64,000 nucleotides of DNA from Mobula hypostoma (taxonomy: Eukaryota), in contig NC_086097.1 of assembly GCF_963921235.1 (NCBI RefSeq), positions 37,326,001 to 37,390,000 of the forward strand, written 5' to 3'. The position numbers and the translations under genes are program-made. This document shows, in pieces, positions 6,623 through 55,910 of the stretch. The first letter of the stretch is position 1; each line of letters opens with the position of its first letter. A model generated the notes under the pieces. The model saw only the letters and a program-made list of their open reading frames with translations, made no database searches and was not told the origin of the DNA.

Positions 6623-6733
6623 TCCAATCAATCCCTGCACTTTTTTTAGGAGGCTAAAGAAATTCGGCATGGCCCCATTGACTCTTACCACTTTTTACTG
6701 ATGCACCATAGAAGGCATCTTATCTGGATGTAT

Positions 6734-6931
6734 TAGCACAAAGACAAGAAAATCTGCAGATGCTGGAAATCCAAGCGACACATACAAAATACTGGAAGAA
6801 CTCAGCAGGCCAGGCAGCATCTATGGAAAAGAGTAAACGATTGACGTTTTGGGCCAAAACATTAACTATTCATTCTCTTCCATAGCTGCTGCCTGGCCTG
6901 CTGAGCTCCTCCAGCATTTTGTGTGTGTTGC
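6734..6931. mobile_element. Penelope-like element pLTR-derived fold-back insertion
   Basis: Inverted arms (ctggaagaactcagcaggccaggcagcatctatgg / ccatagctgctgcctggcctgctgagctcctccag); 13-bp TSD TATCTGGATGTAT at 6721-6733 and 6932-6944. Confidence 0.8.
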
Positions 6932-7216
6932 TATCTGGATGTATAGTCAATTGCTCTGTATGTCACTACAAAAAACTGCAGAGATTTTGTGGACACAGCT
7001 CAAAATATAATGGAAACTACCCTCCCCTCCATGGACTCTATCTATACTTTGTGTTGCCTCAGTAAAACAGCCAGCATAATCCACCCATCCCAGACATTCT
7101 CTCTCCTCTTCTATAGGGCAGAAGATACAAAAGCCTAAAAGCATGTACCACCACACTTAAGCACAGCTTTGATCCTAATGATATAAACCATTGAATGGTT
7201 CCCCAGTATGATAAGA

Positions 7217-11199: not shown

Positions 11200-12016
11200 G
11201 GTGGCACAGTAGAAAAACTGTCACTACAGTGCTTCACATCATCGGCTGTAAGATACAAGGGGTGATTGATAAGTTCGTGGCCTAAGGTAGACGGAGTCAA
11301 TTTTAGAAAATCTAGCACATTTATTTTTCAACATAGTCCCCTCCTACATTTACACACTTAGTCCAGCGGTCGTGAAGGATACGGATCCCTTCTTTGTAGA
11401 AGTCGGCATCTTGGATCTCCAGAAGTGGTCCACAGCAGGGGTGATTGATAAGTTCATGGCCTAAGGTAGAAAGAGATGAGTTATACAGCTCTCATTACAT
11501 GCACATGCAGTTCAACTCTTTGAGTGATTATGCAGAAAGTTTGAAGTTAATAACTCACCTCCTTCTCCCTTAGGCCACGAACTTATCAATCACCCCTGCT
11601 GTGGACCACTTTTGGAGGTCCAAGACGCCGACTTCTACAAAGAAGGGACCCGTATGCTCCATGACTGCTGGACTAAGTATGTAAATGTAGGAGGGGACTA
11701 TGTTGAAAAATAAATGTGCTAGGTTTTCTAAAATTGACTCCTTCTACCTTAGGCCACGAACACATCAATCACCCCTCATAGGTTTCAATTCCTGCCATTG
11801 TCCGTAGATTCTCCCTAAGACTCTGCATGGGTTTTCTCTGGGTGCTCTGGTTTCTTCTCTCATTCCAAAGGCATTCAGTTAGGGTTTGTAAGTTGTGGGC
11901 ATGTTATGCTGGCACTAGAAACATGACAGCACTTGCACAAACCTCGCTGATTTGATTTGACACAAACAACATATTTCACAGTATGTTTTGATGTATATAT
12001 GACAAATAAAGCTAAA
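11200..12016 (+). mobile_element. tRNA-derived V-SINE-like element interrupted by a mariner MITE
   Basis: tRNA-like head (ggtggcacagt...ggtttcaattcc), V-domain-like core gcatgggttttctctgggtgctctggtttcttctc, 3' end gacaaataaagctaa. Confidence 0.6.
11256..11778. mobile_element. Mariner-derived palindromic MITE
   Basis: TA at both ends (11254-55, 11779-80); ~230-bp inverted arms starting caaggggtgattgataagttcgtggcctaagg. The right arm encodes the mariner transposase C-terminus DFYKEGTRMLHDCWTKYVNVGGDYVEK*, and the left arm carries its inverted counterpart. Confidence 0.88.
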
Positions 12017-12752: not shown

Positions 12753-12915
12753 ATCCCAGTGGAAAAATACTATAACTAAGTAAAATGATGAATCTACATT
12801 TGGGAATAAAATTAAATATTAAAATACATTGTTCAAATTTAGAGCCAGAAACTAAACTGATGGAGGAATTCAGTAGGTCAGGCAGCATCTATGGACACTG
12901 AGCATGATTCATGAT

Positions 12916-14699
12916 GGTGAATTGATTATGGGGAGCAAGGACATGGCAGACCAATTGAATAGTTACTTTGATTCTGTCTTCACTAAGCAGGACATAAATA
13001 ATCTTCCAGAAATAGTAGGGGACAGAGGGTCCAGTGAGATGGAGGAACTGAGCGAAATACATGTTAGTAGGGAAGTGGTGTTAGGTAAATTGAAGGGATT
13101 GAAGGCAGATAAATCCCCAGGGCCAGATGGTCTGCATCCTAGAGTGCTTAAAGAAGGAGCCCAAGAAATAGTGGATGCATTAGTGATAATTTTTCAAAAC
13201 CTGTTAGATTCTGGACTAGTTCCTGAGGATTGGAGGGTGGCTAATGTAACCCCACTTTTTAAAAAAGGAGGGAGAGAGAAACTGGGGAATTATAGACCGG
13301 TTAGCCTAACGTCGGTGGTGGGGAAACTGCTGGAGTCAGTTATCAAGAATGTGATAACAGCACATTTGGAGAGCGGTGAAATGATCGGACAAAGTCAGCA
13401 TGGATTTGTGAAAGGAAAATCATGTCTGACGAATCTCATAGAATTTTTTGAGGATGTAACTAGTAGAGTGGATGGGGAGAACCAGTGGATGTGGTATATT
13501 TGGATTTTCAAAAGGCTTTTGACAAGGTCCCACACAGGAGATTAGTGTGCAAACTTAAAGCACACGGTATTGGGGGTAAGGTATTGGTGTGGGTGGAGAA
13601 TTGGTTAGCAGACAGGAAGCAAAGAGTGGGAATAAACGGGACCTTTTCAGAATGGCAGGCGGTGACTAGTGGGGCACCGCAAGACTCAGTGCTGGGACCC
13701 CAGTTATTTACAATATATATTAATGACTTGGATGAGGGAATTAAATGCAGCATCTCCAAGTTTGCGGATGACACGAAGCTGGGCGGCAGTGTTAGCTGTG
13801 AGGAGGATGCTAAGAGGATGCAGGGTGACTTGGATAGGTTGGGTGAGTGGGCAAATTCATGGCAGATGCAATTTAATGTGGATAAATGTGAAGTTATCCA
13901 CTTTGGTGGCAAAAATAGGAAAACAGATTATTATCTGAATGGTGGCCGATTAGGAAAAGGGGAGGCGCAACAAGACCTGGGTGTCATTATACACCAGTCA
14001 TTGAAAGTGGGCATGCAGGTACAGCAGGCGGTGAAAAAGGCGAATGGTATGCTGGCATTTATAGCGAGAGGATTCGAGTACAGGAGCAGGGAGGTACTAC
14101 TGCAGTTGTACAATGCCTTGGTGAGACCACACCTGGAGCATTGTGTGCAGTTTTGGTCCCCTAATCTAAGGAAAGACATCTTTGCCATAGAGGGAGTACA
14201 AAGAAGGTTCACCAGATTGATTCCTGGGATGGCGGGACTTTCATATGAAGAAAGACTGGATGAATTGGGCTTGTACTCGTTGGAATTTAGAAGATTGAGG
14301 GGGGATCTGATTGAAACGTATAAGATCCTAAAGGGATTGGACAGGCTAGATGCAGGAAGATTGTTCCCGATGTTGGGGAAGTCCAGAACGAGGGGTCACA
14401 GTTTGAGGATAGAGGGGAAGCCTTTTAGGACCGAGATTAGGAAAAACTTCTTCACACAGAGAGTGGTGAATCTGTGGAATTCTCTGCCACAGGAAACTGT
14501 TGAGGCCAGTTCATTGGCTATATTTAAGAGGGAGTTAGATATGGCCCTTGTGGCTACGGGGGTCAGGGGGTATGGAGGGAAGGCTGGGGCGGGGTTCTGA
14601 ATTGGATGATCAGCCATGATCATAATAAATGGCGGTGCAGGCTCGAAGGGCCGAATGGCCTACTCCTGCACCTATTTTCTATGTTTCTATGTTTCTATG
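12916..14699 (+). mobile_element. Young CR1 LINE, 5'-truncated (RT region and 3' UTR)
   Basis: Two long ORFs (213 and 371 aa) separated by one frameshift near 13473; complete RT motifs including FADD; hairpin gggccgaatggcc and (TTCTATGT)n tail; sits inside a PLE remnant (~12850-12915 / 14700-14720). Confidence 0.95.
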
Positions 14700-15271: not shown

Positions 15272-15690
15272 TCACACATAATGCTGTCAGAGCTCAGCAG
15301 GTCAGGCAGCATCTACGGAAGTGAATAAACGGTTGATGTTTCGGGCCGAGACCCTTCTTCAGGACTGGAAAGGAAAGGCAGAATAAAAAGCTGGGGGGAG
15401 GACAAGAAGGACAAGCTAGAATGTGATAGGTGAAGTCAAGTGTGTGGAGGAGGGGTGATAAAGCAGGAAGCTGGAAGGTGATGTGGAAAAGGCAAAGGGC
15501 AGGAGAAGAAGGAATCTGATGGGAGAGGAGAAAGGGAAGGACGAGGGGCACCAGGGGTACATGATAGGCAACTGGGGAGAAGAGATAAGAGAGCAGAATG
15601 GGAGAAGTGAAGAAGAGGGAAAGGGAGGGGGGAAATTACAAAATTGATGTTCATACCATCAGGTTGGAGGCTGCCCAGAAGGAATACGAC
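15272..15690 (-). mobile_element. Penelope-like element 3' end (GIY-YIG C-terminus, pyrimidine-rich UTR, pLTR with degenerate hammerhead)
   Basis: Minus strand ~15690-15640 translates VFLLGSLQPDGMNINF, resembling the PLE endonuclease C-terminal L.TL.P.GMN motif; followed by cagtcCTGAAGAagggtctcggcccGAAAcatc at 15367-15330. Confidence 0.8.
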
Positions 15691-16569: not shown

Positions 16570-16625
16570 GCAGGGGTTGCCAACCCTTTTTATGCCATGG
16601 ACCCCTGCCATTAACCAAGGGGTTA
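16570..16625 (+). mobile_element. hAT/Charlie-type MITE end fragment
   Basis: cagggggttgccaaccctttttatgccatggacccc resembles hAT-Charlie termini. Confidence 0.4.
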
Positions 16626-16792
16626 ACTAGTTAAGCAACCTCATTTGTGGCACCTTGCCAGAGGTCTTCTGAAAATCCAAGTACACAACATCAACCAACT
16701 CTCCTTTGTCTATCCTTCAAAGAATTCCTATAGGTTAGTCAGGCAAGATTTTCCCTTAAGGAAACCACGCTGACTATGGCCTTATTTTATTA

Positions 16793-16980
16793 AAGTTGCT
16801 GGTGAATGCAGCAGGCCAGGCAGCATCTGTAGGAAGAAGTGCAGTCGACGTTTCAGGCCGAGACCCTTCGTCAGGACTGTTAGCACCTCTTCCTACAGAT
16901 GCTGCCTGGCCTGCTGCATTCACCAGCAACTTTGATGTGTGTTGCTTGAATTTCCAGCATCTGCAGAATTCCTGTTGTTT
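16793..16980. mobile_element. 188-bp PLE-derived fold-back retroelement
   Basis: 51-bp inverted arms with one mismatch (16792-16842 / 16883-16933); 14-bp TSD GCCTTATTTTATTA at 16779-16792 and 16981-16994. Confidence 0.9.
16842..16879 (-). ncRNA. Minimal type I hammerhead ribozyme motif
   Basis: Minus strand CAGUC-CUGACGA-AGGGUCUCGGCCU-GAAA-CG-UC-GACUG: perfect 5-bp stem I, CUGANGA and GAAA boxes, short stem II, palindromic ACGU in place of stem III, GUC cleavage triplet. Confidence 0.8.
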
Positions 16981-17089
16981 GCCTTATTTTATTATGCACT
17001 TCCAAGTACCCCAAAACCACTTTCTTAACAATCGACTCCAACATCTTTCCAACCACTGAAGTCAGACTAACTGGCCTATCATTTCCTTT

Positions 17090-17425
17090 TGTAACTCTTG
17101 CTCCGGCTAGTGGCTTAATATAGGGGATGATAGCCCCCCCGGCCCAGCCAAACTTAAGAAATCTCACTTGGGTGGATGCTGCATGATGCGTCCTATTACA
17201 AAGCAGTACCACAAAATAACAAACAGTACACAGTATGCGATTAAACGATTGAGCTTTATAATTCTTAATTTGACTGTATGGTTAGTAAAGAAACCAAAAA
17301 AAGAAAAGGGGTCCATTCTCATGAAACAGTCTAATGCACAATGTTGGAGCTCACTGATAAGGCCGTTCGCCCACCATCAACCTCCTCCCATCGTCGCTGA
17401 CCTTCTGACCTTCGGACCCAGCAGG
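17090..17425. mobile_element. Possible partial LTR inserted in CR1
   Basis: Abrupt non-CR1 sequence starting TGTAAC; the other end appears lost in a deletion; no coding evidence. Confidence 0.3.
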
Positions 17426-33099: not shown

Positions 33100-36000
33100 T
33101 GTATTTTTATATTTTCTCAGCTCAAGCTGGTAAAACCTGAGGTACGGGCATAGACAAGCACACTCATTTCTCAATTGATAGGAACTTTCAGACTATTCTA
33201 GTGGTGTTTAGTATTGTGGCTTTCTGGAGATTTCCATAAGTAGGCCTAATTGTTTAATCCTATGGTGTAGTGACCAGGATGATACTGGTTGGTAGATATT
33301 ACTACTAGGATAATGTATACCTTGTTCATGTACCATAGCCTTTCAATTTCCTCTTTTAATTCAGCATATTTCTGGTGTTTTTCACTTGTTGATTTCTATA
33401 TGTTATGTGTGTTTGGAATGGCACTATCAATTAAGTAAGTCGTTCTTGCTTGTTGGTCCTGTAATATTAAATCCAGACGGTTTTTATGGATTGTCCTATC
33501 TATAATATTGGACCAGTCGTAATATAATTTGTAGGACTCTGACTCTAAAACAGGATCAGGCTTGTATTTATAGTGAGGTACAGTGTCTTCTATGAATTTG
33601 TATTGTAAATTAAGATTTTGGTGAATGATGTTTGTCATTTGATTGTACCCGTGTAAGTAATCAGATTGAGTTAAACTGCTGCAGGATCCTGTAATGTGTT
33701 GGATTGTTTCTGGTTTCTCTTGGATTTTCTACATTTAGCAGTTTGAATTTGTTGGTCTTTTATTATGTACTTTTGATCATTTTTGTGTTAACCACCTGGC
33801 CCTGTATTGCCACAAGGAACTCCTCCTCTGTTTCTGGGAAGAGTTCTCCAACTCTGAGCCAGGTGTTCAATGCTTCTTTGTTGGCATCTAATCTGCTCAG
33901 ATTGTGGGGATGCCTTGAAGTAAATTCTGTTGAAAGTTTTCCCTTTACATCACACTATGATCTATTTTTGTTGCATGTTGATATCCCAGATACTTATATC
34001 TTTCATATTCATCCATCAGTTGTATAGTATCCTGTTGCTCTGTTTTATATTCTACTGGCTCTATTGCACCTTTCTTTATGTTTAATGTTCTGCACTTATC
34101 TAGTCCAAAGTTCATGTTTATATCTTTAGAAAATACTATTTGAATTAATTGCTTTAGCTTTCCTGACAAAGGAGTGTATAATTTCCAATTGTCGATGTGC
34201 CAAGGTATAATTCATTTGGCTTTCTCTAAATTGATACCCTGTTTTACTCTGATTCAGTAAATTAGAGAGTGGATTTAAAGCTAGACAAATTCTTAGTGGG
34301 TTTAGAGAGACACTCTGTGAAAAGCCTCTATTTTGATAACGTTCGTTGTTCTTGTTTGGTCGTTAATAGATAGGGTGATTATAGAACGCTAATGCATCAT
34401 TAGATGTAGGAATTTCACAAGTATTAGATGTAGTTTATATATATTAAGAACTTCTTTTAACCATGGGTGTGGTACAGAATCAAATACTTTTTGGTAGTCA
34501 ATACAATGATGTGAAAGATTTCTGCTTTTCTGCCAGGTTTGATTTGGAGTTACAGAATCTATTATCATTTGTTCTTTTCATCCTTTCATACCCATACGGC
34601 ATCTTTTCTGCTTGTCTGTAAGTATATTGTGGTTATCTAAGTGAGTGGTGATTAATTGTGAGATGCATGATGTTAAAATTTTATGTATAGTTTGTAAACA
34701 AGTAAAAAGATGATGTTTTGATGGGTAATTTGTTATTTCTCCTTTTCGTAAAAGATATGTTTTACCATCCATTCAGCCACTTTTTCAGGATTTTTAAGAA
34801 AATTATTGATATAGAAACATAGAAACATAGAAAATAGGTGCAGGAGTAGGCCATTCGGCCCTTCGAGCCTGCACCGCCATTTATTATGATCATGGCTGAT
34901 CCTCCAACTCAGAACCCAGCCTTCCCTCCATACCCCCTGACCCCCGTAGCCACAAGGGCCATATCTAACTCCCTCTTAAATATAGCCAATGAACTGGCCT
35001 CAACTGTTTCCTGTGGCAGAGAATTCCACAGATTCACCACTCTCTGTGTGAAGAAGTTTTTCCTAATCTCGGTCCTAAAAGGTTTCCCCTTTATCCTCGA
35101 GCTGTGACCCCTCGTTCTGGACTTCCCCAACATCGGGAACAATCTTCCTGCATCTAGCCTGTCCAATCCCTTTAGGATTTTATACGTTTCAATATCCCCC
35201 CTCAATCTTCTAAATTCCAACAAATATAAGCCTAGTCAATCCAGTCTTTCTTCATATGAAAGTCCTGCCATCCCAGGAATCAATCTGGTGAACCTTCTTT
35301 GTACTCCCTCTATGGCAAGGATGTCTTTCCTCAGATTAGGGGACCAAAACTGCACACAATACTCCAGGTGTGGTCTCACCAAGGCCTTGTACAACTGCAG
35401 TAGTACCTCCCTGCTCCTGTACTCGAATCCTCTCGCTATAAATGCCAGCATACCGTTCGCCTTTTTCACCGCCTGCTGTACCTGCATGCCCACTTTCAAT
35501 GACTGGTGTATAATGACACCCAGGTCTCGTTGCACCTCCCCTTTTCCTAATCGGCCACCATTCAGATAATAATCTGTTTTCCTATTTTTGCCACCAAAGT
35601 GGATAACTTCACATTTATCCACATTAAATTGCATCTGCCATGAATTTGCCCACTCACCCAACCTATCCAAGTCACCCTGCATCCTCTTAGCATCCTCCTC
35701 ACAGCTAATACTGCCACCCAGCTTCGTGTCATCCGCAAACTTGGAGATGCTGCATTTAATTCCCTCATCCAAGTCATTAATATATATTGTAAACAACTGG
35801 GGTCCCAGCACTGAGCCTTGCGGTACCCCACTAGTCACCGCCTGCCATTCTGAAAAGGTCCCGTTTATTCCCACTCTTTGCTTCCTGTCTGTTAACCAAT
35901 TCTCCACCCACACCAATACCTTACCCCCAATACCGTGTGCTTTAAGTTTGCACACTAATCTCCTGTGTGGGACCTTGTCAAAAGCCTTTTGAAAATCCAA

Positions 36001-37168
36001 ATATACCACATCCACTGGTTCTCCCCTATCCACTCTACTAGTTACATCCTCAAAAAATTCTATGAGATTCGTCAGACATGATTTTCCTTTCACAAATCCA
36101 TGCTGACTTTGTCCGATCATTTCACCGCTTTCCAAATTTGCTGTTATCACATCCTTGATAACTGACTCCAGCAGTTTCCCCACCACCGACGTTAGGCTAA
36201 CCGGTCTATAATTCCCCGGTTTCTCTCTCCCTCCTTTTTTAAAAAGTGGAGTTACATTAGCCACCCTCCAATCCTCAGGAACTAGTCCAGAATCTAATGA
36301 GTTTTGAAAAATTATCACTAATGCATCCACTATTGCTTGGGCTACTTCCTTAAGCACTCTAGGATGCAGACCATCTGGCCCTGGGGATTTATCTGCCTTC
36401 AATCCCTTCAATTTACCTAACACCACTTCCCTACTAACATGTATTTCGCTCAGTTCCTCCATCCCACTGGACCCTCTGTCCCCTACTATTTCTGGAAGAT
36501 TATTTATGTCCTCCTTAGTGAAGACAGAACCAAAGTAATTATTCAATTGGTCTGCCATGTCCTTGCTCCCCATAATCAATTCACCTGTTTCTGTCTGCAG
36601 GGGACCTACATTTGTCTTTACCAGTCTTTTCCTTTTTACATATCTATAAAAGCTTTTACAGTCCGTTTTTATGTTCCCTGCCAGTTTTCTCTCATAATCT
36701 TTTTTCCCCTTCCTAATTAAGCCCTTTGTCCTCCTCTGCTGAACTCTGAATTTCTCCCAGTCCTCAGGTGAGCCAGTTTCTCTGGCTAATTTGTATGCTT
36801 CTTCTTTGGAATTGATACTATCCCTAATTTCTCTTGTCAGCCACAGGTGCACTACCTTCCTTGATTTATTCTTTTGCCAAACTGGGATGAACAATTGTTG
36901 TAGTTCATCCATGCAACCTTTAAATGCTTGCCATTGCATATCCACTGTCAATCCTTTAAGTGTCATTTGCCAGTCTATCTTAGCTAATTCACGTCTCATA
37001 CCTTCAAAGTTACCCCTCTTTAAGTTCAGAACCTTTGTTTCTGAATTAACTATGTCACTCTCCATCTTAATGTATTAATAGGTATGGTTGAAGGCAGTAA
37101 GTTTTTGTATCGATTATGAAGAATATTATCACTGCTGGTACTTTTCCTTACTTTTATTATTAGATAAA
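33100..37168 (-). mobile_element. R4/Dong(Rex6)-clade non-LTR retrotransposon with restriction-like endonuclease (RLE), degenerate, split by a CR1
   Basis: RT motifs TCLQTIHKILT, DINMNFGLDKC, YKYLG; linker AIQGQVVNTK; ETIQHITGSC zinc-knuckle end; RLE NRLDL...LIDSAIP...KYAELKEEI; (TAA)n on both flanks. Confidence 0.82.
34811..37072 (-). mobile_element. Young CR1 LINE, 5'-truncated
   Basis: 609-aa uninterrupted ORF2 segment with all RT motifs; (TTCTATGT)n tail; near-identical to the 12916 copy; candidate TSD TATTGATA/TATTAATA (34804-11 / 37073-80). Confidence 0.95.
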
Positions 37169-38684: not shown

Positions 38685-41600
38685 CAAGGAACACTGACTG
38701 TGCCATCCCATACCCACACTTTGGAAAGTCCGATCACCTGGCTATGCTTCTACTCGCAGTGTATAGGCAGAGACCAAAGACAGTAGCACAGTGTGGAGGA
38801 CTAAGTAGGTATGGTCAATGGAGACAGTGGAGTGCTTACAGGGCTGCTTTAAGTCAGTGCAATGGACAATATTCAGGGACTCTGAATGAATACACCACAA
38901 TTGTCACTGACTTCATCAAGACCTGTGTGGACGAATGTGTGCCTTCGAGATAATACCGGACGTACCCAAACCAAAACCTGTGGATGAACCTGGAAATTTG
39001 TAGTCTGCTGAAGGCTAGACATGTGGTATTCAAGACCAGTGATTCAGAACTGTATGTCCAGGTACAACCTAGAGAAGACTGGTTCAAGAGTGAAAAAAAC
39101 AATTCTAAGTTGAGTCAGAGAAGGAAACAGGTGCAGGTCAGATCTGGTAGTGTTTGCAGGTCTTCACTTCGTACAAAGCGAAACCTAACATCATGAATGG
39201 CTGTGTTGCTTCACTCCTAAATGAGCTAAACAACTTCTATACACAGTTTGAAAGGGAGAATAAAATTACACTCGCTTTTGGAATGGTTCCAAAAGAGAAC
39301 TGGAAAATTGCAAATTTCACTCTATTCTTTAAGAAGGGAGGGAGGCAGAAGAAAGGAAATTATACTTTAACTTGATTTCAGTGGTTGGGAAGATGTTGGG
39401 GTCCATTACTAAGGATGAGGTTTTTGGGTACTTGGAGGCATGTGGTAAAATAGGCCAAAGTCAGAATGGTTTCCTCAAGGGGAAATCTTGCCTGACAAAT
39501 CCTTTGGAATTCTTTGAGGAAATAACAAACAGGAGAGACAAAGAAGAGTCAGTGGATGTTGTATACTTGAATTTTCAGAAGGCCTTTGACAAGACGCCAC
39601 ACAGGAGGCTGCGTATCAAGATAAGAGCCCATGGTATTACAGGGAAGATACTAGCAGGGATAGAGGATTTGGAATAAAGGAGGCCCATTCTGATTGGCTG
39701 CCAGTGACAAATGGTGTTCTGCAGAGGTCGGTATTGATGTTGACGATTTAGATGACAGAATTGATGGCAGATGATATTAAGGTAGGTTGAGGGGCAGGTA
39801 GTGTTGAGGAAACGGAGCCTGCAAAAGGATTTGGACAAATTGGGAGAAGGGGTAAAGACTGGCAGATGGAATATAGCATAGGGAAGTGTATGGTCATGCA
39901 CTTTGTTAGAAGGAGTAAAGACATAAACTATTTTCTAAACGGGGAGAAAATTTTAAAAATCTGAGGTGTAAGGGGACTTGTACAGGATCCCCTAAAGGTT
40001 AACTTGCAGTTTGAGTTGGCAGTAAGGAAGGTAAATGCAATGTTAGCTTTCATTTCTAGAGAACTAGGATATAAGAGCAAGGATGTAATGGTGAGGCTTT
40101 ATAAGGCATCGAAGGAGACTTTATAAAGCTTTATCAGACAGCACCTGAAGTATTGTGAGTAGTTTTGGGCCCCTTATTAAAGAAAGGATGTTTTGGCATT
40201 GGAGAGGGTCCAGAGGAGGTTTATGAGAATGATTCCGGGAATGAAAGGTAGCGTTTGATGGCAATGAGGAGCATTTGATGACTCTGAGCCGTTCCTCACT
40301 GGAGTTTAGAAGAATAAGGTGGGATTTCACTGAAAACCTATTGAATATAGAAAGCCTTACATAGAGTGGATATTTCCCGCGGTTGATGATGAGCCAAACA
40401 GCCTAATTGTGCTCCTATATCATATGCTCTCATAGTTCTGCAAATCCCTGCAGCATCTGTTGACTCTGTGATCGGTGGCTCGGAGGCCGATGTCAGAACA
40501 TCTTTCAAGAGGGTCAACCCTCTCAAGGTGTCAGGGCCTTGTCGGGGACTGAAAACCTGTGCCAACCTTCTTGTGGGAGTGTTCAAGGACATTCTCAATC
40601 TCTCACTACTGCAGTCTGAGGTTCCCACCTGCTTCAAAAGGGCAACAATCATACCAGTGCCCAGGAAGAGCAGGGTGAGCAGCCCCTCAACATCTAACAC
40701 CCAGTTGTACTCACATCTATCGTGATGAAGTGCTTTGAGAGGTTGGTCACGGCTAGAATCAACTCCTGCTGAAGTAGGGAACTGGATCTGTAATTTTCCT
40801 GTCATCACAATAGGTCTACAGCTGATGCAGTCTCACTGGCTCTCCAATTGGCCTCGGATCACCTGGACAATGGTAATACCCATGTCAGGCTGCTGTTTAT
40901 TGATTACAGCTCAGCTTTCAACACTATCATAACCTCAGTTCTAATCAACAAGCTCCAAAACTAGGGCCTCCGTACCTCCCTCTGAAACAAGATCCTTGGC
41001 TTCCTCATTAGGAGAACTGAGTCAGTGCAGCTCAGAAATAACATCTCCTCGCTGAGAATCAACACTGGTCCATCTCAAGAAGGCGTACTTAGTGGACTGC
41101 TCTATTCTCTCTACATCCATGACTGTGTGACTAGGCGCGGCTCAAATGTCATCTATAAATTTGCCAATGACACAATTATTGCTGGCAGACTTTCAGATGG
41201 TGACAAGGAGGCGTACAGGAGTGAGGTCGATCAGCTGGTTGAGTGGTGTGCAACAACAACCTTGAAATCACTGCACGGGATAGGAAAAAGCTGCAGAGAG
41301 TTGTCAACTCAGCCAGCTCCAGCGTGAGAATTGAGGACACCCCCCCCCCCCAGCATTGAGGGCACCTTCAGAAGACAATGCCTCAAAAAGGCAGCATCCA
41401 TCGTTAAGGACCCCCATCATCCGGGCCGTAACCTCATTGCTATCTTCAAGAAAGAGGTAGAGGAGCCTAAAGACAGACACTCAGCATTTCGGGAACAGCT
41501 TCTCCATGTCCATCATCAGATTTCTGAATGGACAACGGACCCAGTGTCACTGCCTCATTTTCCTTGCTCTTTTTTTCCCGCTACTTATTTAATTTAATGT

Positions 41601-54242: not shown

Positions 54243-55910
<1,668 letters not shown>

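Follow-up and report, generated by a model that had tools for sequence, protein, structure and literature searches.

Penelope-like element (PLE) insertions have a layout that recurs in the available parts of three papers: an inverted 5′-truncated copy, a one-sided tail of 30-40 bp and a target-site duplication (TSD) (PMC3846280, PMC8557442, PMC8969392). The minimal hammerheads (min-HHR) of metazoan PLEs were found mostly as single motifs, from truncated PLEs, and also as opposite-strand pairs 100-700 bp apart. The G10.1-C11.1 pair is highly conserved in them and, in the experiments covered by the accessible text, single min-HHRs failed to cleave and dimers were weak (Cervera and De la Pena 2014, PMC4209133). 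The Anolis Poseidon protein PAc nicks and extends both strands and prefers AT-rich DNA with ATT. Its cDNA starts at two internal sites, which define the tail. The Anolis hammerhead required the element's own protein, and insertion in vitro did not depend on the hammerhead (Frangieh et al. 2024, PMC11167929, available text). Animal non-LTR retrozymes, as characterised in the accessible part of a preprint, consist of direct repeats in tandem that carry two or more ribozymes, and one of the nine dimers tested there cleaved (Li, Clavereau and Pollet, bioRxiv 10.64898/2026.07.22.740005).

The insert described here is 188 bp long and lies in a 64-kb stretch of Mobula hypostoma DNA, which was analysed as a whole (the window). 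It is real but ordinary: a truncated copy of a very abundant repeat, whose layout and type of ribozyme have both been published already. A literature search, with most subscription papers outside its coverage, found no work dedicated to short PLE fold-backs of sharks or rays.

As far as the available text of the two papers describes them, the complex EN+ PLE insertions of Arkhipova et al. (2013, PMC3846280) and Craig et al. (2021, PMC8557442) share with this insert the head-to-head copies, the tail at one end, the short TSD and the strong 5′ truncation. The insert differs from them in that its copies are shorter than 100 nt and have no ORF, in its 48-nt tail (compared to 30-40) and in its TSD (14 bp, compared to 8-10 bp in the rotifer PLE examples). 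With PAc, as presented in the available part of PMC11167929, it shares an AT-rich target and a pair of adjacent internal start sites that lie downstream of the hammerhead and flank the tail; its short end likewise lies within a predicted stem-loop. By contrast, the loop is GU-rich in the insert and AC-rich in PAc, and the searches tied no ORF to the pLTR of the insert. Like the non-LTR retrozymes of the accessible preprint text (bioRxiv 10.64898/2026.07.22.740005), the insert is non-coding, hammerhead-bearing and, very probably, derived from a PLE pLTR; unlike them, it consists of one inverted unit with one motif in place of tandem direct units.

Structure of the insert and its target site

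A preliminary description of this locus had reported a perfect 14-bp TSD around 188 bp, and this was borne out. The word GCCTTATTTTATTA occupies 16779-16792 and 16981-16994 (plus strand); the two copies are identical at 14/14 positions, spaced by 202, and enclose 188 bp. The target is AT-rich (11/14 A/T in the TSD). Short target-template matches were found at both ends: the last four bases of the left TSD copy match the template continuation at 3/4 positions, and the first two bases of the right copy (GC) also fit the family continuation. Exact 14-mer pairs spaced by 150-300 bp occur four times in the 64-kb window, and three of the four lie in another repeat at 11.2-11.8 kb. An unrelated inverted-repeat element of 519 bp (11258-11776) contains further, internal copies of its terminal motif, has TA close to each end and resembles a non-autonomous element of the Tc1/mariner type.

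The insert splits a decayed LINE reverse-transcriptase (RT) fragment (16623..17104, minus strand), presumably CR1-like, which has five paralogs in the window; RVT_1 was detected in ORFs overlapping the paralogs. Removal of the insert together with one TSD copy restored the fragment, and the empty junction is spanned by five in-window LINE paralogs. The best of them (39373-39624, 76%) has a single similar copy of the duplicated word. The restoration of the LINE on excision and the single word copy in the paralog indicate that the duplication is host sequence copied at insertion. Elsewhere in the window, two LINE RT copies (12916-14698 and 34811-36585) lie 20 kb apart in opposite orientation and share 97% identity across 1.78 kb; the second is within a 612-codon open frame with RVT_1. 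The insert is located approximately 37 kb upstream of the first coding exon of SIX1 (54243-54806, plus strand), which matches the SIX1 portion of PDB chain 4egc_A almost perfectly.

Within the insert, 16793-16842 pairs with 16883-16932. The arms are 50 bp long and have one mismatch (16838/16887); the single mismatch had been described correctly, but the reported arm length of 51 bp counts the last TSD base. The minus-strand fold of the insert has a predicted energy of -121.4 kcal/mol (z = -15), equalled by none of 200 shuffles. An unpaired tail of 48 nt (16933-16980, plus strand) extends a single arm. This tail, the most diagnostic part of the 188-bp insert, had been missed in the preliminary description.

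Family positions were counted from the predicted cut, which lies between 16847 and 16846 on the minus strand. The first 5′-truncated pLTR copy (16793..16878, minus strand) spans -32 to +54, and the second (16883..16980, plus strand) spans +5 to +102. The first copy contains the hammerhead and stops at the 'short' end, without the tail, whose contiguity with it is taken from Mobula isoforms (see below); the second contains the tail and no hammerhead. The two are bridged by four nucleotides, GTTA (16879..16882, plus strand); judging from the loose ends of read contigs, this filler would be the reverse complement of 16878 and the next three family bases. The insert is non-coding and asymmetric, being made of two head-to-head 5′-truncated copies of one repeat end and not of a symmetrical hairpin. 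The 3′ end of each TSD copy adjoins the antisense (cDNA) strand of the repeat, at two family positions 48 nt apart, which is the arrangement expected of target-primed cDNA.

With a hammerhead in a pLTR, a head-to-head inverted 5′-truncated copy, a one-sided tail and a short TSD at an AT-rich target, the insert behaves as a PLE insertion on all the structural features tested. It is very probably a truncated PLE product, whatever the route by which it arose. Fold-backs are a known long-read artefact, and the searches for a link to a PLE ORF were negative (see below), which would suit a chimeric fold-back created by the reads or the assembly, or a repeat unrelated to PLEs. Either is scarcely credible here: the TSD is exact and corresponds to a one-copy paralogous empty site, the arms are unequal and end at family-defined sites, and an X1 contig from the read data matches 16959-17033 with 0 differences, although only 22 of these letters lie within the insert.

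The hammerhead motif

The hammerhead string quoted in the preliminary description, on the minus strand of the loop, was found as quoted at 16879-16842. The motif itself (16843..16878, minus strand) is a minimal type I hammerhead in which the core elements CUGANGA (here CUGACGA), GAAA and the NUH cut site are all present, together with the extra nucleotide between 9 and 10.1 (an unpaired A) and the palindromic 15.2-16.2 (ACGU). A core pattern derived, post hoc, from the hammerhead sequence had one match in the window and none in 100 shuffles. A looser pattern had two sites in the window, the present motif and 15362-15338, and Rfam at the gathering score gave no hits in the whole 64-kb window. 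A hammerhead on the plus strand was rejected, as no core exists there. Compared to the min-HHR in the available text of PMC4209133, the motif has the same core, extra A before stem II and loop-less ACGU; it differs in the G-U that replaces G10.1-C11.1, in forming the loop of a 50-bp hairpin and in having no tandem partner.

The register of stem II with an unpaired A has pair probabilities of 0.87-0.97, compared to 0.02 for the other register; the latter, with A-U as its first pair, was rejected (p ~0.02). Stem II opens with G-U, the conserved G10.1-C11.1 pair being absent, and the position is G-C in both of the other in-window copies that cover it. The family-derived stem I has 4 bp, and a fifth pair forms with p = 0.21. 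Family contigs continue as AACTGAAGG after 16878, indicating that the C of 'CAGUC' (16879) is junction filler. The preliminary description had a perfect stem I beside the core nucleotides and the ACGU; the fifth pair of that stem uses filler. The ribozyme had been called intact; its core is complete, but its intactness is doubtful in view of the filler-based fifth pair, the G-U opening of stem II and the sequestered core.

In the predicted fold, GACG of the core pairs with CGUC, burying the palindrome and the cut site. The predicted open-core fraction is about 0.001 (4.1 kcal/mol) and an arm alone gives a similar value (4.4); as the arm alone behaves like the whole insert, core sequestration would be a property of the motif and not of the fold-back. 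In nearest-neighbour energies only, which contain no tertiary or protein terms, the active extended dimer has -222.9 kcal/mol compared to -242.8 kcal/mol for two monomers. The potential self-cleavage of the transcripts that had been suggested is doubtful, because the motif is single, G-U replaces G10.1-C11.1, the predicted rod would be inhibitory and the published monomers of this class, in the accessible literature, were inactive. On these folding predictions, and by analogy with the published monomers, the ribozyme of this lone copy is most likely a passenger that would not cleave here.

At 16897-16901 (plus strand), shortly after the hammerhead in the sense pLTR, an ATG is directly preceded by a pyrimidine tract and AG. 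This site resembles a splice acceptor, and the frame closes after 16 codons.

Related copies, read contigs and protein matches

A second fold-back in the window, of 198 bp (6734-6931; 6721..6944 with its TSD, plus strand), belongs to a sister subfamily. It has a 13-bp TSD, TATCTGGATGTAT, and a one-arm tail, and is independent and older. Its outer layout is that of the 188-bp insert, but its turn is different: it lies at a GGCC palindrome within stem II, so that no complete hammerhead is left. A longer 5′-truncated relative (15273..15690, minus strand; left limit firm, right limit approximate) contains a decayed hammerhead (15338-15362), a pyrimidine-rich upstream region and a short peptide; no convincing TSD was found at 15273-15690. 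A short diverged fragment of the same pLTR core is located at 12866-12890. No second copy with the inner junction of the 188-bp insert was found in the 64-kb window.

From the read data, 84,453 X1 contigs were placed, with 557 joints, 15 of them listed. Of the 15 listed joints (of 557), 13 connect the two arms, every one at its own pair of positions (depth 6-190), and the remaining two are host-LINE paralogs. The letters in between are marked as not known in 11 of the 13 arm-linking joints; this and the palindromic reference make the joint positions approximate. Three short-filler joints (16878-16842, 16877-16841 and 16878-16844) had been considered as a hot spot at stem I, which was rejected as the kind of joint is not displayed and the reference arm ends there. 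Past 16878, 167 X1 loose ends run on as AACTGAAGG into upstream family sequence. Past 16982, beyond the tail, the family contigs diverge, and 170 X1 loose ends become mutually unlike (agreement 0.40-0.41). None of the 32 pieces listed spans the junction, and a clean empty-allele joint for the insert locus does not occur among the 15 joints listed of 557.

These contigs bear on the discrete, non-autonomous, ribozyme-bearing mini-element family (retrozyme-like, transposing as a unit) that the preliminary description had considered. A clean TSD, PLE start sites at both ends and a complete hammerhead core would suit such a family, and PLE-derived non-autonomous retrozymes exist according to the available text of bioRxiv 10.64898/2026.07.22.740005. 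We nevertheless consider it very unlikely. The inner junction has no second copy in the window, the contigs run upstream at 16878 instead of crossing it, the joints are many and, among those listed, shallow, and animal retrozymes are tandem direct repeats, unlike the insert. Neither the second in-window fold-back nor the 15 listed joints (of 557) revealed a set of copies with identical ends and an identical inner junction. The inner breakpoints are heterogeneous, both in the window and among these joints, which argues against a discrete mini-element and leaves the proposed family unsupported.

The arms agree at five of the six family-variable sites examined, two of which carry minority letters (shares 0.35 and 0.24), indicating that both arms come from one source haplotype. 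The sole difference between the arms is a letter carried by 6% of the family depth. The depth of the subfamily-specific bin 16916-16936 relative to the host-LINE bin was 11.1 in X1, 9.9 in X5, 0.12 in X9 and 0.15 in X10; depth is not copy number, and these ratios give no more than a hint of a lineage-restricted burst.

At the protein level, the short peptide at approximately 15.6 kb (within 15273-15690) resembles, we presume, the C-terminus of a Penelope-like endonuclease. With 32-41 aa it is a weak query: it gave no match at E <= 10 among 18 candidate proteins, no hits among 1.84 billion representatives, no usable atlas match and no Pfam family. Pfam on 26 of the 66 listed frames revealed RVT_1, APE-type endonuclease and SIX domains and no GIY-YIG. 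The insert translation matched 12 of 60 candidate proteins, all of them host-gene isoforms of Mobula birostris or M. hypostoma without RT or GIY-YIG domains. In nine of the 12 (P0001-P0002 and P0004-P0010), the peptide runs unbroken from the tail via the hammerhead into 'LTEG', demonstrating that the two insert copies are parts of one continuous family unit. The earlier proposal of an insertion by PLE machinery, as a truncated inverted pLTR, is well supported by its architecture, while the searches for a link to an RT/GIY-YIG ORF were negative.

The 12 proteins P0001-P0012 are predicted isoforms of Mobula genes that are unrelated to one another and go by 11 gene names. In them the pLTR is present as an in-frame block of about 30-50 codons, antisense in 11 and sense in one, and its boundaries are often similar. 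This suggests that the antisense pLTR contains a cryptic cassette exon, or else that the block is a recurring annotation artefact. The pLTR patterns had no loci in viral contigs and none in metagenome contigs; the sole match of the core pattern, in viral locus L001, was rejected as chance, since it comprises 22 nt only and has no wider similarity.

Proposed origin and its significance

The insert is probably a one-off, dead-on-arrival insertion by an endonuclease-bearing PLE of a high-copy ray family, produced by a two-ended-priming route. The element protein would nick both strands of the AT-rich site, 14 nt apart, and each 3′-OH would prime cDNA at one of the two internal start sites of the pLTR RNA (+54 and +102). 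Synthesis of both cDNAs would stop at the hammerhead hairpin, some 90-100 nt on, and the two would then be linked head to head by 4 nt of filler. This route is supported by the antisense strands abutting the TSD ends, the target-template matches, the outer layout shared with 6734-6931, the varied joints and the single haplotype, as well as by the two-strand nicking and paired start sites of PAc and by the published PLE layout. Counting against it are the negative RT/GIY-YIG searches and the 48-nt tail, compared to the 30-40 of the available published examples.

The inner junction may have been set by the ribozyme's own fold: one cDNA would end exactly at -32, the 5′ edge of stem I, and the other exactly at +5, the 3′ edge of that stem, with the GTTA filler looking like a hop across the hairpin base. 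We put this forward tentatively and regard it as doubtful, as it is one case, read post hoc, and the turn of the second fold-back in the window lies at another place. The position of both inner ends at the stem I boundaries would also fit self-priming (snap-back) on an antisense template or cDNA, with hammerhead stem I as the hairpin; the PLE origin would be unchanged. Palindrome self-priming at inverted junctions is proposed in the available text of PMC3846280, the arms share a haplotype and the 6.7-kb copy turns at its GGCC palindrome. However, as far as can be judged from the sequence, snap-back of a tail-primed cDNA would give a loop orientation opposite to that observed, snap-back of a short-primed cDNA would need a second priming event for the 48-nt tail, and the 4-nt filler would be left unexplained. 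Self-priming is, in our view, unlikely.

The filler also bears on a later loss of the centre from a longer or more symmetrical inverted PLE insertion, for instance of an arm 2 hammerhead hairpin, by palindrome-driven deletion. The filler is family sequence just upstream of stem I, and on this reading arm 2 runs from -35 to -32 and then jumps to +5. This match of 4 nt is, however, weak and post hoc; the 1/50 arm mismatches and the 14/14 TSD suggest that there would have been little time for secondary change; and the same jump may have occurred during reverse transcription. We consider such a deletion quite unlikely. A single locus does not separate two-ended priming from self-priming or later deletion.

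The insert is a clean minimal example: 216 bp take in the two target ends, the two start sites and the inner join. Because all of these lie so close together, two-ended priming and self-priming could be tested against each other on a genome-wide set of such copies, which could also show whether the hammerhead shapes the stops of reverse transcription. If, among the many young fold-backs of the family, such junctions cluster at the cut site or at stem I, the ray genome would hold a large fossil record of double-ended priming. The same record would cover hammerhead folding or cleavage in vivo, and would bear on the origin of PLE inversions and on the role of the ribozyme.
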